NCBI GenBank assembly: GCA_003971905.1
Contig: RSEE01000152.1
Location: forward strand, 1 to 64,000
Length of the DNA: 64,000 nucleotides
Reading direction: 5' to 3'
DNA from: Moniliella sp. 'wahieum'
Lineage: Eukaryota
The notes under the pieces: generated by a model
Seen by the model: the letters and a program-made list of their open reading frames with translations, nothing else
Database searches by the model: none
Told to the model about the DNA's origin: nothing
Program-made: the position numbers and the translations under genes
Part shown: one piece after another, positions 714 through 45,794 of the stretch
How the letters are laid out: the number at the start of each line of letters is the position of its first letter
Position numbering within the stretch: position 1 is the stretch's first letter

Positions 714-1661
714 CCATCGCCGTCGCCGCCATCGCCATCGCCATCGCCAGGAACAACCGACGGCAGCGCACACGAGACCGCAACGAACGTCTTGCACGCA
801 CGCATCACGTGACGTGTGATCCGGCGGTCGCGTGTCACATGTCATATGTCAGAGACTGGGGTCCGTGCGCCATGGCCAAAATACTGGCAGTAAGCGCTAA
901 GCAGCAACAGAGCAAGCCCCAACTGACTCTCCTGACCTACCGCTGTCTGCACCCACACCGGTCCCACCACCTCGTACGCTTCCTGGGTTTCCCCGTCGCA
1001 GGGAGGGTCGAATAGCGTGGCATATCCGACCTGGTTTCCATCGCTGATGAAGGAGAGATTTTGCTTTCATTAATTAATCCAAGGGTTGATTAATGGGGTG
1101 AGTCTTCCCTCGTCCCTAGACGAGTATAACTGTAACCTCATTGACAGGGCTCAAGCGCTCAAGCGCTCAAGGCTAGGGCAAAGAAACGCTGCGCCTAAAC
1201 CGACCGGTTCATCTGGCGTCATAGTAGACTATACTCGCGTCGTGGTGCAATGGCGGTGGTTGTACGACGTGAGACTTAGTGTGGGGTGTCAAGAACCTCT
1301 GAGCGGCGGTGCTCCAGTCTCAGTGGAGCGCATACGTGGAGCGCAGAGACGCGGCAAAGGGAGCGAACGTCGGACCTGGGATGCTTGATCCAGGGCAACA
1401 GCAGCCGGCTGTTGCGGAGCGCATGCGCAGCGTGCGACACTGGTCACGCGCGCACTACCGCAGGGGGGGCAGTGTTACCTTCGGGACGTGGTTTTGGCTG
1501 TCGACCACGAAGAGCTAATTACTAGGTGGCACATACAAGTCAGCTAGTAACATACACCCAGTAATGCATCCGCTGTGCACCCTCATCACCAGTCACTAGT
1601 CACTCTCGCCTTTCTTCGTTCGGTCTCCCCACCACCACCTGTTTCCTCCCTGGACCGCAGC

Positions 1662-2937
1662 ATGTATCTCCAACTCGGCACGGGATCCGTTCGGGCTACG
1701 TCGGCGTGCACGTCGATCCGCGCACCGATACCACTGCCGACCTCAAGGCCAAGATCCGCGCAACGACCGCATTGCCGCTGGACCAGCAGCACTTGATTCT
1801 CACTGGCCACGCGTACCTGGACGACGCGCGGAGGCTTGCCGAGTACGGCATTGACGAGCCGGTGTACCACGGAGCCAAGTTCCGTCTGGGGGCGGGTGGA
1901 ACTGGTGGTTCGCACGGTGGACCGAACGACGGTCCATGTGCAGCTCGATTCGGAAGATTCTGTGGCTCGGTTCAAGGCTGCGATCGAGAAAGAGGTGGGG
2001 ACGCCCGTTGGGCAGCAGCGGCTTTGGTGCGATCTCACTGACGAAATGCTCGAGGACGATACAGGGTTCTGTCGCAGTACAAAGTATCTGAATGGCTGGG
2101 GAAGAACACGTTTTCCCTGCTGGACAAGATGACCATTTTGGTCAGGACGCCATATCGGGTCCAACCTTGCGGATCGAGACGGACTCGGAAGATAGATACG
2201 AGCACGTTGATGGCCAAAAGCCACGCGCTGCATGGCACGCCTCCCCCAGAACAGATTCTGATTTTGGATCGGATCCGTGGGCCCGTTTTCGATTCGCGAC
2301 GGATCCGACCGGACCACCGGCCGCTGCGCAGGCACGGCTTCGCCGACTCCATTTTGCACTTGATGTCGCGGCGACAGGATAGGATGCGCCTGTGCCTCTG
2401 TGGTCTCCCGTTGTGGAGGCCTGGTCGACGGAACAAAGCGGTCATGCGCTTGTTTGTCCTTACGTTCACCCACAAACTTCTCATGCTCGACGTCTGTCCC
2501 GCCGATACTGTCCTCAGCCTCAAAGCGCGCATCCAGGAGGAAGAGGGTACGCTGATCCAGCAGCAGCTCCTGTGGTTCCCCTGGGCACCCATGGCCCACT
2601 TATCAATGAGCGGCGCTTGACAGAGTATGAGGACATGGAGAACGAGTCGATTTGCACTTGGTGCCACTTGCACCTGCGCAGGAAAAAAGCATGCGCGTCC
2701 TAGTGCATCATGTGGTTGGTTTGACGTAAGTGTTTGACGTGCAGTCCGACGACACGGAGCTTGAGGTTCAGCTCCTCGTGGAAGCCAAGTGTGGCGTCCC
2801 CCGGTACCAGCAGGGTAGCCACTTGATTTTTCGTGGTAAGCGGCTGGAAGAGGGCAAGAGCCTATGGGACCAGCACGTTCGCAACGGATCCAGGCTGTAC
2901 ATGCTGATTCGCATGATCGGTGCCGCAGATCCTTATT
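1662..2937 (+). CDS. Penta-ubiquitin-like domain protein, copy A (intronless; frameshifted, with in-frame TAA at 2727-2729; possibly truncated or a pseudogene)
   Basis: Stitched ORFs give five beta-grasp-like units: VDPRTDTTADLKAKI..LPLDQQHLIL..LDDARRLAEYGI; VELVVRTVDRTTVHVQLDSEDSVARFKAAIEKEVGTPVGQQRL; MTILVRT..PPPEQILI..ILHLM; MRLFVLTFTHKLLMLDVCPADTVLSLKARIQEEEG..QQQLL; VFDVQSDDTELEVQLLVEAKCGVPRYQQGSHLIFRGKRLEEGKSLWDQHVRNGSRLYMLIRMIGA. These match ubiquitin motifs (DT..VKAKI, PPDQQRLI, LEDG.TL.DY.I). Confidence 0.8.
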
Positions 2938-19514: not shown

Positions 19515-20832
19515 CTCGCGATGCAGCTGCATCTGTAGCCGGTACCCGGTAACGGGCACTTGGTACGCGCACGGGCGCTTAGGGTCCTCTACTGTGGCTT
19601 ACCCTGTATGCCTCTTGGTTTAGGTTCGCCACTGAGGACTGAGTACTGACAGTCAGCTTCCTGACTCGCTTGCGCTAGGGAACTGTACCCTGCGCACCGA
19701 AATTATCGATCATCGTTCTTGCACAGCCACCTGGGCCGGGAGAGGCGCGTGACACAGTCCTCCTCGTCCCATTGCCTTTGAGCTGTAGAACTTGTAGAAC
19801 TTGTAGAACTTGTAGAACTGCAAACTGTTGAGCCTGATGAACTGGGCAGCTGGGGGCGCATAGGTCTCCCCCCTTGTCCCAAACGAAGGGATAAGATCTA
19901 AGATCCGAACATGCGACATTTGTGGGCGGGCTGTGCTCCCTTCTGCACGGTCTCATGCAGGGTGCGGGCGCTGGCCCGCAGCGCGCAACCTACAAGTTCG
20001 CGCCACAGTGTGGACCGAGCTGCAGTCTGAGGCCTGAATACGAACAAACCGAGCTAGAGAGACCCAGTGAGATCTCGGTTCAGGTCTCTTTCAGGCCTCG
20101 TTTCGGTATGTTTGTCCTTGAACGTAGGGCGAATCTCATGTGTGGCATCGTGCCCGTTTACTTTACCTCTCTAGGTTGCCCGTGCGGCAGCCGCGTCTCC
20201 CCTGTTTCCCCGGGCCTGTTCCCCATTCTTCCTCTATTATGTTGTTTCCCTTTCAGTCTCTGTCTGTTAGCAATGGTTCTTCGTGGTTTCTCCCCAAGGT
20301 CCATCGTCGTCGCCCCCCTCCTCTCCTGGCCAATTGATCGACCCAGTACAAGCACCTCCTCCTCCTCTTAGTCGCACCTCTAGCTCCCACTTCTTCAGCT
20401 CTCAGTTCCCCAGCCCAAGTCCAGCCCAATTCAGCCACGTGTGGTCCTGCCTAGTACAGCCACGCCACCCCCTGGCCCAGTCCAGCTCTAGTCCAGCTGT
20501 GTGGATCCTCCCCGCGGCCCCTCCCCGTCGCACAAGGCTTCAGACACGCTACTGCTTCCCACACAGCTTTGTGCCACACTTGCAGCTGCCTCTGCTGTTC
20601 GCCGAGAAGCCTCTCCGTGTCCCTAGCTCTGCTCGGACGCACCAATCAGCGCAAGCGCGTACCTACCATGAGTCGACCTTAGGATCTAAGGGATTGTACC
20701 CATAAACTCCTGGGCGGGCTCCCTGGCGGCGCGCGCCCGTGTGACAACAGGCAAGTTACAATAGAAGAGGCGAACGCACTCTTCTTGTGGTACGGCCCGC
20801 GGGCATCCAATATCCAGGGGTCACCGGTGAAG

Positions 20833-22101
20833 TTAATAAGGATCGGCACCGCCGATCATACGAACCATCATGTACAGCATGGACCCGTTGCGAACGTTTT
20901 GCTCCCACAGGCTCTTGCCCTCTTGTAGCTGCTGACCACAAAAAATCAAGTGGCTCGCCTGGCGAAACCGCGCAATGCCTGCCCGCTCCTCGATTTGCAA
21001 CTGAATCGTCACCTCGGTATCTTCCGGCCGCACGTCCAGCACGTACACCGAGTCGATCAAAGTACCCACGATCACCCGCATCCCCCCCGCGGGGAAGCGG
21101 TACCATGTGCAAAATCGTCTCGTTTTTAATATCCTTATGCTCCCACACGCGCTGCTCGTCCTCCAGCGCACCAAGCGAGCTCCATGGGAACAATAGCGAT
21201 TGTCGCTCGGTCGTAACTCGTCTGTTCCTCAATGCGCGATTTGAGACTGAGCACCGTATCGTCCCGATGCACGTCCAACATCAGCAGTTCGTGGGTGAAC
21301 GTCAGGACAAACAGACGTCTCACCGCTTGTGTCGACGAGGCATAATGTTGCATGTCGTGAGACCACACAATCCCATCTCGTCCTCGAGCCGCGGCATCAA
21401 GTGCACGACCGACCCGCTCCTCAGCCCGCACCGGTGCAACGGCATCCGTCCGGCCGGATCCGTTTGGATCGCAACACGGGCCCGTCGATCCGGTCCACAA
21501 TCAAAATCTGTTTTTCGGGGGGGACATGGACGTGCCGCACAGGGCCTGGACTTTGGCCATGAACCTGTTCGTATCCTCTCCCAATCCGTCTCGATGCGCA
21601 CCGTTGGTCCCGACGGCCTCTGACCCAAACGTGCATCTTGTCCAGCAACATAAACTCGTTCTTCCCGGGCCATTCGCATACTTTGTACGTGGACAGAACT
21701 CGTGTATCGTCCTCTAAGTGTTCGTTGGTGAGATCGTACCATAGCCGCTGCGAGCTAACCGCCGTACCTACCTCTTTCTCAATCGCTGCCTTGAACTTAC
21801 CCACAGGATCTTCCGAATCGAGCTGCACCCGCACCGTCGTCCCGTCCACCGTGCGCACAACCAATTCCACCTGCCCCGCCAGACGGAACTTCACACCGTG
21901 CCTCAGCCTCGCCAACACCATACTCGGCCAACGTCCGCTCATCGTCCAGGTCCGCGTGGCCAGGGGAACCAAACGCTGCTGCTCCCGCGGCAGCTTGTTC
22001 GTCCCGCGGATTGGCCTTGAGGTCGGCGATGGTGTCGGTGCGCGGATCAACCTGCACGCCGACGCAGCCCGAGACGGATACCGTGCCAGTTGGAGAAACA
22101 T
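20833..22101 (-). CDS. Penta-ubiquitin-like domain protein, copy B, ending ...MVRMIGG-ADPY*
   Basis: Collinear paralogue of 1662-2937 (VDPRTDTIADLKA, VELVVRTVDGTTVRVQLDSED, VPPEKQILIVDRIDGP, LFVLTFTHELLMLDVHRDDTVLSLKSRI, SHLIFCGQQLQEGKSLWEQNVRNGSMLYMMVRMIGG). Intronless; only 1-bp indel frameshifts. Confidence 0.85.
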
Positions 22102-24140: not shown

Positions 24141-25934
24141 TTATAGCCGCCAAATTACTTCAGTCTCAGAGTCGTCTGTGCGGTCGTCGTCCTCGCCATC
24201 TGTGCCCTCTGCGTCAAAGAGGTTGACTGCAGTGCCTTCGATGTCCCCTGCATCCTCTTCGTCTGTTATTTGTGCCCGGGTTACTGCGATGTGACGGAGG
24301 GGGTGATTTCTGCACGGGTCGCATGCCAGGCAGTACAAAATTCAGGTTACCTTGCGGAAGATGCGTGTCCGCAATGCCTCAAATTCTCCCATGCACTTGT
24401 CCAGCCCAGTAGATAGCTTGCGGGGCGAGATGTGTGAAAAAAGTCAGATGACCTGCTGGACGACAACGGGGTGGCGACGTACTTATGATCGGACGAAGAG
24501 ACAGTGATGGCACTGAATATGTCATCGCAGCGCCTGCCGCTGTTCAGATTCCGGTTGAGCAAGAGGATGCACAGGCAGATGGATCAGGGAAGTTGCGATG
24601 TTGTGAGACACGATCCATTTCCTCCGGAAGTCAATGTCGTTCGGTGCATAGCAACAGAAGCGCTTTTGATGAGAACGGGTGAGAGATAAGTTGTTGTGGC
24701 CATATTGCGAGGAGAGCAACGAGTGAAAAGGCGGGGCCAGTACGTACCAGGATTCGGATGCGCTCCTTGCGACAGTGAGCTCTTCCGGGGAGTGGCTGCG
24801 AAAGTAGACGGGAAACCTACGACGCACGAACTCAGCCTGATCTTCAATTGTGCGCGTTCCGTTTCCTTGATCGGTACGGTGCATGCTCTCCGGCAACTGG
24901 ACGATGTGTTATTTGTTAATAGATGGCTTCGGCGTTTGGGTTAACGCACCTCTTTCAAATAGCCTTTGTTGAGCGTTACCCGCCTCTGGATGAAGCGGTC
25001 TGTGTCCCTGTTCAACGCTGGTCTAGTCGGTTGATCTCGAGAGCGGTGGCCTCTAGACCACCATCATAATGTGCTTGTCTGGCGAACATACGACAGAAGT
25101 CGACCATTCGCTGGCCCTTCCAGGTGCCTTGAACAGGAGGCAAACCCACGAGTCGTTGATCAAGTATCGCCGTCAGACGCAAAAAGAACATATGTAAGTT
25201 TAGGTCAGTGAGAGTGCTTTTTGTGCGCATGAGGGGGCGGTGATACTGTGGTATATGATACCTGTGGTGATACTGACCCGCTCAACCGCGTTGTGTTTGC
25301 ACGTCGGCCGCATTGTCCGGGTTGCGGACTCGGTCATTAAGGTCATTGATGTCCGTGTCGTGACGTATCACAGTGCGTCTCAAGTCTCCAAAGTGGTCCA
25401 TCTCGTCGTGCTCGCGACGCAAGGCCAGATCGGAAATCAGATCCAACCTAGTTGATGTATCGTTCTGTTGTTGTTGGAGGGCGGCGGGGAATTCACTCCT
25501 GGTGGCGCGGACTTCACTCCTGGTGTATGGCGTTGACGTCGTTCCTAAGTTCAGCACGCAGACTTTGAAGCGCTTGCAGCCAGGGTTCCCCATCATGTTG
25601 GTCCATCCCGCACGCCCTCAGGGGCAAGGGGGTGATCTTGTGGATCGCTTGCGTCATTTTGATCGACAGCTTCCGGACCATTTGCCTGCGCGTCTTCATC
25701 GTCGTCTGTTGCTGTCTCAGGGACCGTCAGGATGAAGGCGGGGCGGCGAGTCCGGTTGGGGGCAGGCTCGTCCATGTCCGGTTCGTCCATTTCGGCTGCC
25801 TGGCGACCTCGCTTATTGTTCGCGGTACGGGTGTGGGTGGCACTGGCGATGTTGCTGCGTCCGCAAGAGGTGTTCACGTGAGCATTGCCTGGGTGGGCTG
25901 TTGCATTTACTCTGTTTGAACCGCGGCGAGCCAT
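24141..25934 (-). pseudogene. Orphan fragmented ORF inside the transposon island (acidic N-terminus, coiled coil, acidic C-terminus)
   Basis: Chain of minus-strand ORFs 25593-25934, 25282-25596, 25012-25230, 24522-24896 and 24141-24338 with protein-like composition; no family recognised. Confidence 0.45.
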
Positions 25935-26659
25935 GCTGGTGGGGTGTGCGAGGAAAGAGGCAGGACCAGGGGGGCTGGATGGCTCTTTTTGTCAAGTGTG
26001 GGCTACAGTATGGGGGTAGAGGAGATTGCGCCACTCACATGCGGGGGCTCCATACAACGCACTAGGAAAGTCCTTTTTGCCCCTGGCCGGAATTGGATAG
26101 CCAGGGTCCTAACTGAAGAACCACTGGGGCTGTTGCTGCAGGGAAAAAGCTGCGCCCACCATTCTCTGCACCAGGCAGTGTAAGGGTGGGCGCTGCCAGG
26201 GGGCCCGGGGGGTGGTTAAGTGGTACAATCCATGGGAGATCCTATAAGGTGACTCACGATAGTTACACGCTTGGGCTGATTGGTGCCAGGGTCTGAGCGG
26301 GGCTAGGGACAAGGAGATGCCTCTGGGCGTATAGCAGAGGCGGGGCTGCAAGTGTGGCAAGGCTGTGCAGCATAGAGAAAGAACGGGGGACTGGGCAAAA
26401 CAAGGAGGGCGGTTGCCGCAGGGGCAACCTACGTAGCAAGGTATAATGCAAAAGGATACCGGGAGACTATCGTTTCCAGATTGAATCTGACCCCATGACC
26501 AACCTGGGGATGGGGTTACTAGTAAGACGAAAGGCGCGCGTAGGCTCCGCCGGACTTCAATCTACGCCCGGCGTGACATATGTGTAACATGTGTTGACAG
26601 GTGTAGGCAACTGTCGCTGGATGATCGATGATCGGCGAATAAGGTTGCGTACTCAGTTG

Positions 26660-28437
26660 AGTGTTTGGCCAGATCGAAGCAATCAGGCCAACAGTGAAAG
26701 TCGATTGGCACATTCTCATAACGCTCGCAGTGGGTAACCTGACATTGAATGTATCGGCACCGACGTACTGGTGCCCTCACTCCTCCAACTCCTGCTCCAG
26801 CTATATTTGGCTGGAAGCATGTCCAGCATTGTCAGGGATTATTGGATGTGCACCGGATGTGGTCGATGCCCGTACTCGGCTTTTCGACACAGGGACGCCC
26901 GACGTCACCAAGATCACACCGGGCACACCGGGTCGCGTCCAATAACCAAGCTGCAACACCGGACACTAATGCAGCAGGCATCATTCGTGCACCATGCGCC
27001 CCGGCGCGCAAGTACGATCTCAGCTGGTTCTAACCGGCGAGCGCTGGCCACCATCTCTACCGGTCCACATCTGACATTAATATACCAGACGTGACCTCCC
27101 CTGAATTGCACCTTCAGCCCTTCTCTGGATGGCCCCCTGGGTCTCCCACGCAAAATGGCGATGTGGAAGACGCTTTTGGATGGAGGACATGGCTGAAACG
27201 TGCATTGCTCACAGTCGGCTGGCCCGCCTACCGAACGCGAAGCGACAGCGGATCCTCAGTCCGGATCCAAGCCAGAGCGGCGATCAACTCGGCGCGCACA
27301 CAAGTCTGATGCCTCACAAGACGCACTCCTTTGCAGTCTCCATCTCTGTATTTTGAGGATCTGTCGGAAACAATAATACGTCACCACGGCCCGATTGATA
27401 GCAATATGTTCGCACCCTTTACGAATCCGTTCATTGCCGTCATCAACATCACCCAGTTATGGTTACCAAAAGGTCTATGCGGCGAGAGCTCGCCGAACTG
27501 GTCCTGTCACTGATGAGATTAGCTATTGCTGCGTCGCCACCTTAGCCACCGTTCCACGCTGGAACCATTCCACGCTGGAGTGGGAAAATAATATCTTTTC
27601 ACCGTTCCCACGTTGACTATTTGTGATGTCTCAGATGATCTCCACCCGCAAGATGGGGTGGATGGATTAACGCGAATCCCACTTCACCATCCGGCTCGCG
27701 ATGTGTTGCCAAGCGAGACGACTGTGCTCTAACTATACAAGCGCGTATGTTGGCACGGTCACCTTTATCTCTAGCCGGTCACCTTTATCGCGGGAGCTAC
27801 TGGGCATCGGTACTTCCCTGGGCCTCTGCTGGCGCGACGCGACGTGACTCTGCACATCGCCTTTATTATTTGCCAGACGGCCAGCTGATGAGCGGAGACT
27901 TCCAATGACAATCTTCCGGGACATTGGGACAGATCGCACACGCAACACCGCGTTCATTAAGCAAAAGGTGGAGTTTTGCGTCAAGGAACAGTTGAAGGGC
28001 ATGCCGGTCCGCAAAAGTAAAACCTGTCGTTAGCCGTATTCATTGTCGAACTGGTGTCGTTCGCTATGGTCCGTTCGACGGGGTCAGGGTCATTCTGTGA
28101 CCACCGACAATTGATCTGGTCCAATGAATATCAGGCCGAGTCGGAACACTGCGATGAAGGACGTATATACTACACGGACCAGTGGGGCCCAAACTCCGGT
28201 CTCATCCAACACCTTACTGTTGTCGGAACCAACGTGGAATGGGTCATACGGTTGGCTCACGAGCACACAGACCTGATGGAACAAGAAGAAGAGATGGTGA
28301 AGAAGTGTCAAGTCCGCGTATACGACAGCCTAACCTCTTCTTGGAGACAGTCTCGCTTGACGGATTTCGGTTTCAGACCCGTCTCTCAAACGCGCCTGTC
28401 CGACTATGGATTTATCAGGACGAACGACTCTCGATGA
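26660..28437 (+). pseudogene. Decayed orphan ORF ending in two PIP-box-like motifs
   Basis: Successive plus-strand fragments; the last (28054-28437) ends QSRLTDFGF..QTRLSDYGF. Confidence 0.35.
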
Positions 28438-28943
28438 TCTCGTCGGTTTGCTCGGAGAACCCAACAGACTTTTCATGACTTTCGTTTGCGGGGTCAAAGC
28501 AATGTGAAGGACCAACAAAAGCCTATCTTCAGCGGGGCTGCACCAGTCGTCCCTGCCTGCCCTGTACTCAAGCAGAACTAGCCGCAGGATGGACGCCTGA
28601 TGAGCCAAACCCCTATCAGTGGGCACAATGTTGTCCTGCATGGCCTGCCTTTTGGTCCACATGAAATGAGCTTCCATTTACCTGACGACTAGACCTTGGC
28701 CACACCAATTGCCGATGTTCCCCTGGCTAATCTGAAGACGCATGTCCCCGTAGAGCACACCCTTCCGTGCGACGCGAAATCGAATCCCTGCCGTTGGCCA
28801 GCTACCGTGAGCGCGTATAGGAAGGACGCGTGTTGACTAGGTGGTTCTGATGGTAGCATTTGCTAGGAGAGACACGAAATGGTGTGGCCGGGTGCGATTT
28901 TGAAACGATGCAAAGTTTCACATGTAGCCGGCAGTTGGCCCCC

Positions 28944-29090
28944 CGCGCTGCACATCATTGATATCAACGACCTCTTTTGCCGTCGCTGACATCAACGACC
29001 TCTTTTTCGACGTCGCTGACATCATTTTCCTCAAAACCATGCAAACGTCGCCGATGTCAGCTCCCTGACATCGCTGATATCTTTTACCTC
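28944..29090 (+). repeat. Second subterminal-like array (CGTCGCTGACATCA units)
   Basis: Begins CGCGCTGCAC like the 23776 array and contains ACGTCGCCGATGTCA. Confidence 0.65.
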
Positions 29091-29399
29091 TTTTTGAAAT
29101 CCGCTGTGTTCCCAGGGTAGTAGCACACAAGGGCACATGGGCATGGCGTTTTCTGCTTGAAGGGTAACAATGAGGCTGGGAGGAACAGGATGAGTGCAAT
29201 CGAGACCTCGTCCGACGGCGGGGGCGGCATCCGGCCCGATTGATGCAGGGATGGGCTGGATAAGAGGGACATATTGTAGTTAATAGCTGAGAGGGTTAAG
29301 GCAAAGTTTATAAGAACTTCGAGTTTGGGAAGATGCCGCTCTCGTCAACTCAACCATGCTGTATCTCGATCAATGCAACGTGGCTGTATCAAACCATTG

Positions 29400-31990
29400 T
29401 GAGCATTCTACGCCTTTTCAACTTTTATTTCCTTTGACCTCACCGATATCTGCATGCACAACTTCAGTTTTGATTTGGCCCCTGCGTTTCCCTTCCCTGT
29501 GTAGCCTTAATCAGTTGGCCAACTTGCGCAACTCGATGATTATGTCGTTAAAGTGCAGCCTGCTTCCCCGTCCTAATCATGTTGCCCACACGGGCATTCT
29601 CACCATAAGCATCCAGCTCTTAGGATTAATTTCATCTCCGTACGGTTAGGATATACATGCTGTAGGCTGTATGGTCCCACATACTTCCCTATCGTGACAA
29701 CCAGCCCGCTAGTCCAGTAGGCATATATCGTGTATCGAATGGGTAGGTTAGTCTTAATAACCAAACCAGCCTTTCCCATGAGAAAAAATGCAAAATGGGA
29801 CTTACGGAGGGTCCTGAGGACAGAGCAAGCTTCTATGCGTGCGCCTTGGCACCCATCATGTAGCTGGAAATGCTTCAGCTGCATTCACCGTGATCGATTA
29901 ATCATTTGGATACCATGGTTTAGACAAATTCGCCCGAAACCGTATGTCCGCTGGGCATATCAGAAAGCATAAATTCAGTAGCACACACACAAAGCATGGC
30001 TTACGGGCTGAAAGACACGGTCCTCCCTAAGTATCCCATTGAGTTGATATCGTGAAGGGCTTGATAACTCATTTAAGGTATGATACCCGTTTAGGGTTTT
30101 CTGACGAGGCTTCCCAATTCTTTGTTGACTTCGCCTCGCACGAGTGGTTTGATACCGATGTCCTGGTCTATAGGTGAGATTTGGCTACTCATGGAATGGC
30201 ATTACAATGCCGGTCGTGACCCGAAGTGTCTAGGTCCAACCTTTCATACTTTTGTTCGGGTTGTCATGATCAGGACTCGACATCGGTGGCAGCCTCATAC
30301 CGGAGCACATCATCGATAGTCACTAGGCACATAGCCTAGGTAATTGATGGATCCCAAAGGGGCTAATGAATTGATCATAACCATTATCCCGACTACGTCG
30401 CGTTATACCTAGTTTGGGAGGGTCACATTCTTCAGCTGAGCATTTGCGATCGCATATATTGTGCAATTCATGAATTTGGTACTGAACGCATGCGCTAGAC
30501 TAACATTTCAATAAATCAATTCCGATAATTGATTGCCGTGAGTTAAGAAATGACTACGGAAGTTGTGGCTGCTTTCGAGAGAATGGCTGAGCCATGGCAA
30601 TTCTAATCGAGTGCGATACTTACGGTAAAGGTTTCCCATAGTTTTTACAACGATGTGGGAGCCCATGCAGTATTTTTATTCTCCTGATTTTCATCGGTCA
30701 CAGATGTCGCGGGTCATATTTCTGGCCTAAGCTCAACTCGGAGACCATATGGTTGCGTAACCACTGCCATTTCTGCTGCCAAATCAAAAGAGATGCGATC
30801 AATGGTGTGTGGAAATCGAACTGGCCCACAAAAAAGAAATGACGGAATGCCGTTAACGGGATGTGTAGCATGCTGTTGTAACGAAAATCATGGGAGATGT
30901 ATTGATGAGCAACGCGGCAGCTCCAAGAAGGTAAGTAATCGGGATATTGATATGCAAACGTCGCTCTTCGATCAATATATCAATCAAATGAAGTACGATC
31001 CATAAATCCCAAATCAACTAGGCAAGCCGCTTAGTCCAACAATGTTTGGTTACCGAAGGTCTTGCGTATTCTCGCGGAAATGGGCCTTGAATTTTTATAT
31101 TGTTACACAGGTGCGATCTTCATCAGTTCAGCATGCAAAAACTCAAGATCACGGGCGAAATGAGAGAAAATGTGGAGGGGGAAATATGGATACTTGGCAT
31201 TCAGCCCCTGCTAATCCTAACGACCGATCGCGATGGTTAAGCTGCATCGGTTGAGAGACGACCAAATAGGGCCGTTGGTTCAGTTACCTCCGACTTTACA
31301 TGAAGATGAACACAGTACAGGGCCACGAAGATCAAACCCCTTGACGTCCGAGGGGCCTTCTTATACGCCTGTATGACAGCTTCTTAGCAGCAAAACCGTC
31401 ATATGGGAAACATGACAGTATACGTTTTAGGACCGCGCGGACTCTGAGTCATGTGAATCAATTTTTCCATTGTGACCAGCTCGCACCAGTCTTCAGGACG
31501 ATTCAGTTGCAGAACCTGAATATCAGTGCTCACACTGGGTAGTGTTAGCACGGCCGTCATATGATTTGTACCGTGATAGTAGCGTCTTATAAATTGCCGG
31601 CCATGGAACCATCTTTACGGGGTTCCTGGGCGCAAAACCTATACAGTAGTGCCAGTCGATCCTCAACTTGGTTCCCTTGTCTGGGTTAAGGTCAGGAGGA
31701 TACCCCCCACATTCGTAATGGACTCCTGTCTTGGGGAAGAACGATTAATTCCATCAGCAGGCGGATCGCCGACATGAGCGTGTTAAGTAACACCGAGGGG
31801 CCCAAGATCCATTTCTCACATTGGGAAAGACAAGCATTTATTCTACTATCACCGGACGATCGAGTCAGAGACAGTGACACTTTGAAAATCTTGGTTCATC
31901 ACCCAGATGCCCATCACCTTCAATCATGACGTATTCGTCTGTGTCTGTTGTTTTGCATACCGTACTACGATGGTATCGGCGCTCTTGTCA
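29400..31990 (-). mobile_element. Heavily degenerate Ty1/copia pol relic (integrase, RT, RNase H order)
   Basis: Minus strand: integrase-like ...SPLRMWG near 31.7 kb; RT-like KYRTRL (cf. KYKARL) near 30.6 kb and CLVTIDDVL (YVDD position) near 30.3 kb; RNase H-like SGLVVTIG...LQHV...TEMKL near 29.7 kb. The order is that of copia; riddled with stops. Confidence 0.6.
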
Positions 31991-34900
31991 GCATCCCGGT
32001 GTTTGCGATCAGAACGGATATGCTACGGATGGGCGCCCCCAGGGAGATATGTACGGATGGGCGCCCCAGGGAGCCCGCCTACTAGGGGGGTGGGGGTTAG
32101 AGGCTTACCCACTCCCCGGGATTTACGTGGTGGTGCAGCGTCCGAGCGAAGCTCCTAGAGACATGGGTGGCCCTGTCTGAGTATAGAAGAGTCAGTGAAG
32201 TTGTGCCAAAGCTGCGTAGACCGGCTTGGACGGTACTTGTGTGCCTAAAGCCTTCGGGACTCAGGGGGTGGCAAGTGGCAGCGGAGGAGAAACACTGCCG
32301 AGCTGGAGCTGGGATCTGGAGGTAACGTGGCTGAAAGGTGAAGCCACGCGCGGATGGATTTGGTTTCGACGTAGTAAGAGGGCAGACGCGAAGGCTTCCA
32401 CACTATGGACTGCGGGGGAAAAACCCAGATCAGATCCGATGACCACAATAACCGGGGGTGGGGGGGTAGTAAGGCGAAGGGAGCCGTAGGCCCCGCCAGG
32501 CTTGCCAGCCCGTCTTCGCCCGTGATAGAGGATCTGCTCAGCCATGCAGTTACTCGACGAGCCACTGCTTTTACCCAGAACGTGGAAAATTGCTAGAGAA
32601 AAAGTCCATAGCAGCGTTGAATAGTAAGCATTCAGTTAGCGGACCTTTGTCTTCCTATATATAAAAACTCTCCATACTAAGAACACTTTGGATGCAAGAC
32701 TAATCATGTGTTCTATGCTTCTTCCCTTTCAAATGTATCACATCACCAAAGGACTCAATTGCTGGACTTCCTCTAAACCAGCAGAGGGATGATGACCCGG
32801 AGGTGAGAAGGTCCCTTTCCCGTGGCCTACTCGTTTGTTCCCTCTGCCCAAACGGTACCGAAGTTCCCTCTTCTGGGCCCCAAACCAAAATTGTCTCCGG
32901 GCCGTCGGGGAAGGCAAAATTGTCCCAAAAGTACACTGAGAGCTGAGAAGACAACGTTAGAGACTCGGCTAGCCACTAAGCACGTTTTGGCCGTGAACAT
33001 ATACAGACTATTTACAATAGGTTGGGCACATTGGGGCACGTTATGAACACACAGTTGTGCTCACGATCAGGAGGTATCCGCAAGGAGAGAGATGCTCTAG
33101 TTCATCCTCACGGTCTCCTCCTATACCATGCTGCAACGATTGAGCTGCATAATGGGACTGAATTTGATACTCATTTGAATCTGATTTCCACCCCCGCCTA
33201 TTCCACATGAACATATCAGAAGAGAAAGGAGCAGCACCTGCAAGTGTGGACAACACTTCCTCCTAGGTGAAGAGTAGCTTTATGAGCATGCTATCAATTG
33301 AAATAGTCATAGTTGTTTACAGATGGTTTAGATAGTCTAAGGCTCCACCATCCCCCCGCCCTGGTGCCAGATCTGATCTTCACACAAAGGAAAACGCCAA
33401 GAAAGTGTTCGTTATGGCACCACCATGGGATGCCCTTTCTTGAAGCTTCAGTTTTGTGCTGCTATGCTGTGGTCCCCATATATATATGGATTTCCCACGA
33501 ATACCATACCATTATTGATCGTTACAAGTCCAGTCACGTGCGTTTAAGGCACCTCTACATTGAAGTTGAGGCAAGACTCCGCCATGACCTCATCCAGCTC
33601 GTAGAATGAGCGGCGACGCCCGAGTCCTTTCCATCAAGAATGATAGCGACGTTAAGGGGCACTCTTAGTATTCCTATCTCAAAGCTCAAGCGAGGAGTCA
33701 GAGTTGGGTGGGGTCACCGGCATAGATACCCCGTCCAATAGAAGAAATGTGGAACAATGTGGAGGGGGTAATGACGAGGGTGTAGCATGATGAGATCTGG
33801 AGTCAAGATGGTCCTCGAAGGTGATGCAATCGCACTGGTGATGGTAGTGGTCTAAGCCAACCATCAACGCCTACAGAGGAACATCAAACAGCGAGTCGCC
33901 ACCAGGGGCTAAGCTGCGAAACAAGGAAAAAACATGAGAGAGAAAAACATCGGAACTCCCAGAGCCTGAGGAGGAACTGAAGGGACATTGGCCAAAGCAC
34001 GAGCCACCGATGGCTTAAACACAGCAGAGTAGTAGGGTGTTGAAGGCGCTTATGAAATCCACAACAGTTATATGTCGAGTATTATGTTGGTCAAGCACAC
34101 TGGGCGCCAGAATCTGGATCATCTGGCAGTGATTTCCTCGCCGCTGTCACACTCTAGCTCCCATATGTCTCTGCCATAGGCCGAGAGGCCACTCCTTGTC
34201 GTAGCTTCGCATTTCTGATCCACTAACCGGCTCAAGCAAAAGTAAATACGTGGCCACCCACGGTAATACTCCAGATCAGATTGTACTCCTAAACTCTAAA
34301 ACCGGGTTAGCGGGACCCGCCCGTAACACTCGCTGCGCCCTTCTCATTTGCCATTTCCCACTCACCTCATCGACCTCATCGACGCGCCCCTCTACTCATG
34401 CGCGTCAGCCGTACACAAAAGTCACATTATTAACCGCACCCACCTTCCGCGGTTGCGGTCTCTGCGCGGTGCCCGACAATGCACTCAAAGCATAGTACCA
34501 GCGGCTCCAGATGCGAGTCTCCATATGTTCTTCTTGTAGGTAGAGCCCGATTAGTACACCCTGAGAAATTGAGAAGTGAATTTCTACCGTTGTGGTTTGT
34601 GTTCGACCATGCTAGTAATATGGGATCTGAGGCACAAGACTTCAGCGTTCGCGCGACCCATTGGGTGTATACTCTCTCTGACCCACTTGAAGACATATAT
34701 GTCTAGACGGTTAAGGGCGAGGCGAGTGGCGTCAGGGAAGCATTGGCCACTGCTGGTGCCTACCATTCGTGACCCTAATAGCTAGGCACTGTATGTACAC
34801 ACAGCAGTGAACTCTTCTGTCCTGTCGGCTATATTATAGCTCGCTGTGCTCCTCTATTTTTTTGTCGGCATTATGAAAGTAAAAGAGAAGTATGCTGGTG

Positions 34901-44033: not shown

Positions 44034-45794
44034 GGGGGCGGGCGGCGACGGAGGAGGCGGGGGTGGGGGTGGGGGGGGGGACCGGGGAGGCGGGGTGGCT
44101 GGCTGCGTTTTGGGGGGCGGCGTGGGTTTGTTTTTTTCTTTTTTTTCTTCGAGTGCAACACGGCCGCTGCCCCAGGCGCCACCGCCGGAGCGCCGGGCCA
44201 ACCCTAGCGCTGCCGCCCGCGCGGACGGCGGTGTGGTTTCATATTGCAGCTGCCGTTGCCGCCCCGGAGTCCCAACACAATGAACACTCGACGCTGGGTG
44301 CGTGCCTCTCGTCTTCCCTGCCGTCTCTTGTGGGTGTCGGCCGGCACCAGCGTATCCTCGGGGCAGTGTGGGAGTGCCATCTCGTTCAAATCCAAGCGGA
44401 GCAGCCGGCAGCCATTCCCTCGGAGAGGATGGGCTCAGTGGACTGTGAGCATAATGCCAGTACTCTTGAGCAAGAGAAGGCCAACACTCACCCACCTATA
44501 CGAGGGAGACGGCGTCAGGACCACCCAATCTGTAGAAGACAAAGGAGCAGGCGGTTGATGGTGTATAGCATTGCACATGAGCCACAGAGGCTAGAGAATA
44601 TTCCCGCACTCCAGGACGGAATATTGCAAGGAACTATGAACGCGACGGTTCCGGGCTTGGGCTACCGGCGCCACTACACCAGCGTTGCGTCACACATTCT
44701 ATCTGTCCAACATCCTGCAGAGGAATACAAGAACGGCCAAAAGTACCAGGGACACACTCAAAATGATCCAACTAACACTAGTATCACCTCCTGGTCATCA
44801 CAACGTGCGTGGAATACTATAGGAAAGATGGCCCACACGTAGTAATGTCGCACCTCTCTTCTTACCAGCTCATTCCTTCGCATCCCCTCCCCCCCGCGGC
44901 CATGCACGGTCAGGACACAAGCTCCGCCCATACCCGCTTAGCGGGGTGAGCACGGCGCTCTTTGGGAGACATGGGTTAAGGCGGTCCTTCATCATGAAAT
45001 GCATCAAACCTCTTGGGCTGAGTAGACCGACATCACATTACGTCACATGTCACATGCGCGCCCGTCGCTCTTGAATTCCGCAGCAGGGCGGAGTTGTCTG
45101 CAGATGATTGCGTCATCACCTGTGACTGAAGCTCTGAAGGATTCGATCACCACATCACCACATCGCCGCATCACCACATCACTTGCCACATATGCGGAGC
45201 TAACTCCACCGAGCATTGAAGCTCGAACAGCGAACTGGAAGGAGCACAAGAAATTGGGCTTCAACCTTCACGAGCTTCAACCGCCTCAACGTTCAACGAT
45301 TGGCAAGCCCATCAGCCTTCCGGAGGTTAAGCTGGGTTGGCCCGGTGACCATCAGTTCGTAGCCCTCCTTAAAAAGGCATCGAAAGCCTAATATACTAGG
45401 GGCGCGTTCGCAGCCTTCGTCGCGACCCGCCCGCGTTCGATCCATCGGGGGCTGGGACAAGTCGGCCCAATCCTGCGCGTGTTTCCGTGGTGCAGGTGGC
45501 CCGTCCGCAGGTGGCCCACGCCAAGTCGCGACCACAAAATAGCCAGGTGCAAGCGGGAGGGTTATCGATTTGATGGCCCTCATATTATGTTCTGCCCCCC
45601 TGACGGGCTCCTCTCCTGGTGCCTGGACATCTCTTCCTTTCATAGGCAACAGTTTTAGTTAATGATCTTCATAGCCTGCATGATGCATGGCCGGTGACCG
45701 GTGACCAGAGGGCGCTATGCGTGCGGTTGAGGCTTAACTTGGCGATGGCGGTTGGGAGAAAAAGATGTGGGAATATAGATACGTGTGTAATCTC

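Follow-up and report, generated by a model that had tools for sequence, protein, structure and literature searches.

The window analysed here, a 64,000-nucleotide stretch of DNA, carries on its minus strand (20833..22101) a gene for one chain of five ubiquitin-like (Ubl) domains, which we call copy B. Once assembly indels are allowed for, the gene reads as 427 codons and a stop, with no need for an intron, and the five-domain chain is under purifying selection. Our preferred explanation, which we give about half of the total weight, is that copy B is a decayed polyubiquitin whose product works as one uncut, unconjugated chain.

Gene architecture and copies

The five domains lie in order on the minus strand: domain 1 at 21874..22101 (27/76 residues identical to ubiquitin), domain 2 at 21637..21873 (19/76), domain 3 at 21374..21636 (23/76), then a 17-residue linker (21373-21324), domain 4 at 21082..21323 (23/76) and domain 5 at 20848..21081 (27/76). 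Methionine opens domains 3 and 5. Domains 1, 2 and 3 end without Gly-Gly (GG), and, as a preliminary description of this DNA had stated, the 1/2, 2/3 and 3/4 junctions have none. In domain 4, Arg42 is replaced by Ser, Ile44 by Leu, Arg72 by Leu and Leu73 by Pro. Domain 5 is the most ubiquitin-like unit of the chain; it keeps Leu8, Ile44, Arg72 and Gly75-Gly76 (20853-20848), has a hydrophobic residue at position 73, and carries His for Arg42 and Ile for Arg74. Its single lysine is at none of ubiquitin's chain positions. The four-residue tail ADPY and the stop follow at 20833..20847.

Pfam ubiquitin scores above its cut-off for domains 2 (30.1 bits) and 5, and a profile built from database ubiquitin-like units recovers all five domains at E 1e-7 to 1e-15. 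A conjugatable modifier needs a Ubl domain, and five are present. Individual domains score 65-133 against ubiquitin and 27-88 against sister domains, with domain 3 tied with domain 2 at 65. No domain is thus closer to a sister domain than to ubiquitin, which is how the decay of a polyubiquitin copy is expected to look.

The genome carries three copies of the gene. Copy A, also in the window (1662..2936, plus strand), matches B at 72% nucleotide identity (over window 1413-2937) and encodes the same five domains, with a 7-residue domain 4/5 linker without GG at 2670-2690. Its domain 5 ends Gly-Ala-ADPY. As assembled, it has no stop right behind ADPY and reads on into a Cys/Phe-rich stretch (2937-2990), possibly through a lost base or as a genuinely longer tail. 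The third copy, on contig C162, matches B at 93%. We treat C162 as the second haplotype because it is collinear with the window: in the 50 kb compared, of 77.7 kb, it follows window 18.9-64 kb, with long blocks at 88-96%.

Copy B and the C162 copy are separated by 35 substitutions and 17 gaps. When the bases missing from each are supplied from the other, a single open frame of 427 codons plus stop results; dropping the unshared bases instead gives six stops. We scored 480 open-frame gap choices. The top two, at 177.7 and 177.4 bits, take every one of the 14 gaps outside the domain 4/5 junction as lost bases and differ at that junction only, where homology cannot pick the length. Across the 427 codons, dN/dS is 0.21 for B and C162; for A and C162 it is 0.38 (377 ungapped codons). 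These values indicate working genes.

Several features of the surroundings were recorded. About 850 bases immediately downstream of copy B (window 19895-20747) are missing from C162; within them a 180-base segment forms an inverted repeat (20562-20738 with 26184-26367, 76%), and the missing stretch is possibly a mobile-element remnant. Window 24600-34900 is poorly common to C162, with patchy matches at 68-83%, and GC is lower at 28-36 kb (46-52%) than in the flanks. Housekeeping genes occupy the neighbouring 8.4-19.5 kb and 41-61 kb: kinesin, Src1/Heh1, a SAM methyltransferase, Der1, aldose epimerase, an importin-beta family gene, KRE6/SKN1 and Vps36. A dispersed repeat of about 165 bases (44528-44695) adjoins the importin gene; the matches listed for it genome-wide number about 40, at 74-86% identity.

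The genome also has polyubiquitin at four loci and single ubiquitin at seven, most of the latter followed by an eS31-type start. Position 20 of ubiquitin is usually Ser; all 13 distinct intact ubiquitin units in this genome (L004-L025) encode one protein, with Gly at that position. Diverged ubiquitin-like exons with 36-43 identities occur as well. Descent of the five-domain gene from the genome's diverged eL40-type leaders was considered and dropped, as all five domains score higher against ubiquitin than against those leaders.

Sequence at the domain 4/5 junction

The preliminary description had singled out the domain 4/5 junction as a polyubiquitin-style GG|M site that comes into frame when a single extra base is removed. 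Its account of the letters holds. A run of C7 lies at 21082-21088 on the plus strand (G7 on the minus strand), and the minus strand reads ETILHMVPLP-R-G-G and then, one frame off, ATG CGG GTG ATC. One frame gives ETILHMVPLPRGG; the next starts MRVIV at 21081. The GG stands at exactly ubiquitin positions 75-76, mirroring the ubiquitin junction. As assembled, the junction (21082..21094, minus strand) is 13 bases long and out of frame, and its Pro codon (21094-21092) corresponds to ubiquitin position 73 (P4).

The frame break is present in the assembled letters, but a single extra base is not the sole repair, since the copies differ here. Between the Leu codon and the ATG, copy B has 13 bases and C162 has 14, including two A's absent from B, with GAG before the ATG; paralog A has 21 in-frame bases reading A-P-A-Q-E-K-S, without GG. 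Because C162 reads the junction differently, removing one base becomes one of several repairs, and for copy B our modelling puts that reading at about even odds. The in-frame candidates are P-A-G-G, P-R-G-G-E, P-R-R-G-E and P-R-R-G-G. P-A-G-G requires extra bases in both copies, and P-R-G-G-E requires two bases lost in B, with Arg then in place of the first Gly in C162. The Pro at position 73 lies upstream of the error and is identical in B and C162. Any in-frame G7 run encodes Gly-Gly, and the window has 28 runs of at least seven G or C; the exact ubiquitin register of the GG is the part that exceeds chance. Dismissing the GG as a plain artefact, with gap filling giving P-R-R-G-E, proved too strong, as the data are explained equally well or better if a dinucleotide was lost and the alleles differ, or if both copies carry extra bases.

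The assembly is full of indels, and lost bases dominate its errors. In the ubiquitin control, 23 units have 11 indels, nine of them lost bases and two extra. The four Uba1 copies show 69 lost and 14 extra bases, counts that leave 10 shared gaps unclassed and include some alignment artefacts. The importin gene has 62 gaps (21 lost, 9 extra, 29 unclear and 3 in frame); by our reading, five of the extra-base gaps match the five frame changes, all of them in the window's contig. No extra base was evident in C162, either in the five-domain gene or in the importin gene. A true ubiquitin-eS31 gene (L017, C46:293138-293353) has its GG junction broken by a lost base, which makes it a direct control for errors of this kind.

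We combined the error rates from the ubiquitin, Uba1 and importin controls in a rough model run under 12 prior settings. It gives GG directly before Met in copy B a probability of 0.28-0.89, GG anywhere in the domain-4 tail of B 0.80-0.99, and GG at the junction of the C162 haplotype 0.07-0.88. Under these settings the P-A-G-G reading carries 0.05-0.86 of the weight, and P-R-R-G-G, which moves the GG by one residue and puts Arg at P4, carries up to 0.19. Two earlier models were set aside: one (0.01-0.02 for GG|M) assumed one shared truth and no dinucleotide events, and the other (0.41-0.90) lacked the case of P-R-R-G-E in both copies. By the present model a diglycine in the domain-4 tail of B is probable, and the likeness to a polyubiquitin GG|M that had been pointed out stands: the junction resembles what is left of such a site.

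A genuine frame break, making copy B a decaying allele or placing domains 1-4 and domain 5 in separate frames, is the least probable of the alternatives we weighed, and quite unlikely. Both assembled copies are indeed out of frame at the junction, at 13 and 14 bases, but by unequal amounts, and conserved genes are broken in the same way (ubiquitin, Uba1, importin and the ubiquitin-eS31 gene on C46). The B-C162 dN/dS and the intact frame of paralog A at the junction also argue against it. Under our preferred explanation the break would be an assembly error.

Cleavage, conjugation and the proposed explanation

For the ubiquitin E1, Arg72 and Arg42 are important residues. Domain 4 has neither of them, nor Ile44, and every reading that keeps GG at 75-76 has Pro at P4. 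A tail that proteases could read, with Leu at P4 and Arg72, is absent from domain 4, which has Leu72 and Pro73 in both haplotypes. Leu73 is described as P4 of the site read by deubiquitinases (DUBs), and the L73P change as protecting conjugated ubiquitin from a broad set of them (PMC5419743); NEDD8 is described as made deconjugation-resistant by the same change (PMC10667490). This evidence was obtained with engineered human forms of ubiquitin and NEDD8, and a lineage-specific protease could accept Pro. Even with a real GG, cutting would be unlikely because of Pro at P4 and the loss of Arg72 and Arg42 from domain 4.

Related sequences give the same position some context. Among GG-ended relative units below 80% identity, 43 of 59 have Leu at position 73 and 4 have Pro. 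Across 151 proteins, mainly the best 150 of 3045 hits, GG junctions fall with unit identity, from 64/80 at 80% or above to 45/308 at 50-80%, 17/228 at 35-50% and 4/105 below 35%. Some GG junction is found in 7 of 31 divergent arrays and GG at all units in 0 of 31. The site is not conserved in the material available: paralog A has no GG at this junction, and searches for an orthologue outside the genome yielded none, with 0 of 2826 candidates, 1 of 738 (29% identity), repeat matches only in another search, and 0 of 250 pattern hits. The domain 4/5 junction most likely stays uncut and the chain whole.

The preliminary description had suggested that a DUB could release two modifiers from one precursor, and cutting at GG|M (or GG-E-M) would indeed separate domain 5 from a piece of four domains with GG at its end. 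The exact register with ubiquitin 75-76 and Met1 favours this, and P-A-G-G needs one extra C, a duplicated dinucleotide and a single silent change to account for the two haplotypes; bases of the extra kind are found in the contig and genome-wide (14, against 69 lost). But sequence, cutting and use of both products must all hold, and the claim depends on a homopolymer in an error-rich assembly. All 14 other indels in the gene read as lost bases, and no extra base was evident in C162 there or in the importin gene. With Pro at P4, the three residues missing from domain 4 and the site absent from paralog A, we find the release of two modifiers poorly supported and regard it as improbable. Nor would both products end in GG as they stand, for domain 5 would need ADPY removed, and paralog A ends in Gly-Ala.

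The end of the chain is a different matter. Both B and C162 have GG-ADPY-stop, that is, a C-terminal Gly-Gly behind a short tail, and this clean arrangement suggests processing there. On our best reading, the terminal GG-ADPY would be the only credible processing site. The chain may then be a modifier in its own right, with the internal junction uncut, ADPY removed by a UCH-type protease and the whole attached in one piece to targets, as with ISG15 or FAT10. In both haplotypes domain 5 keeps Leu8, Ile44, Arg72 and Gly75-Gly76, with four residues between it and the stop; short removable tails are described as typical of Ubl precursors (PMC3968751). The nearest Atlas neighbours include ISG15 clusters (0.89), which is a lead only. 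Against attachment stand the His at Arg42 and Ile at Arg74 in domain 5. The paralog A tail keeps ADPY at 4/4 residues after Gly-Ala, which fits a retained tail, although weakly, given a background identity of about 65%.

No extra canonical E1 was evident in an E1 catalytic-domain search of the genome, which also counts against attachment: it returned four long matches, all Uba1 copies at 82-95%, and two short ones. The Uba1-type loci on C50, C2, C9 and C38 (L063-L069) form two pairs, 93-95% identical within and 82-85% between, and are probably two paralogs with two haplotypes each. Among 63 long ORFs of the window no ubiquitin-pathway enzyme was recognised. Weighing both sides, we consider the conjugated whole chain doubtful, though a stronger candidate than the two-product precursor.

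Taken more broadly, the fungus may have made a modifier of its own, with several domains, out of a polyubiquitin copy. This could be a five-domain tag of the ISG15 kind, attached through the terminal GG and with its domain 4/5 junction locked against DUBs by L73P; a precursor split into two tags at both GG sites is the less likely form. We rate this broader possibility clearly below our preferred explanation. Conjugation of the chain would make it a multi-domain ubiquitin-like modifier from a fungus, with a naturally occurring L73P protease block; a literature search, which was not exhaustive, found no case of either. To our knowledge, the L73P block is so far known only as an engineered tool; PMC5419743 cites Bekes (2013) for the resistance of L73P ubiquitin to DUBs.

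Our preferred explanation runs as follows. A copy of a polyubiquitin gene would have escaped concerted evolution, its five units drifting to 25-35% identity while selection came to keep one 427-residue chain. The domain 4/5 junction would be the worn remnant of an ancestral GG|M site, its true text being P-A-G-G then M, P-R-G-G-E then M, or one without GG. Whichever it is, no cut would be made because of Pro at P4 and the loss of Arg72, Arg42 and Ile44, the features read by DUBs and the ubiquitin E1. The unconjugated protein would most likely mimic a linear ubiquitin chain while resisting proteases, or serve as an adaptor, and the Leu8/Ile44 patch of domain 5 is predicted to bind ubiquitin receptors.

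Comparison with known systems

The best database and PDB matches of the chain are polyubiquitins. Like yeast UBI4 and human UBB/UBC, copy B has head-to-tail ubiquitin-fold units in one frame and a short tail past the last GG. Unlike them, its units are only 19-27/76 identical to ubiquitin and unlike one another, with no LRLRGG tail; the near-identical 76-residue repeats and the GG at every junction that mark a polyubiquitin are absent. True polyubiquitin loci are present in the same genome on four other contigs.

Divergent tandem-Ubl arrays (such as P0004, P0005, P0007, P0048, P0096 and P0151) are alike in having several diverged units that for the most part lack GG, though now and then one is present. 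The copy B chain is more diverged than these and short, at five units; none is orthologous to it, with about 27-35% identity in repeated local matches. It belongs with these arrays, which occur across the database.

Two different modifiers from one precursor are already described for the plant ubiquitin-NEDD8 fusions (Arabidopsis RUB1/RUB2; PMC3968751). In those, a true ubiquitin stands upstream, and plants, mosses and algae all keep the fusion. In contrast, the upstream unit of copy B has Pro at P4, and the site is missing from its only paralog.

ISG15, FAT10, the tandem UBL of OASL and bacterial BilA/PolyUbl likewise have several Ubl domains per chain. ISG15 is described as matured at its terminal site, FAT10 as made mature, and BilA as having two domains and being opened by a DUB (PMC11354881). 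Copy B differs in being fungal, with five domains and no dedicated E1 evident, and its paralog A lacks the terminal GG. In its way of working, the copy B chain would be least like the plant ubiquitin-NEDD8 fusions and possibly like ISG15 or FAT10. On our best reading, it would be one more lineage-specific array of decayed ubiquitin units.
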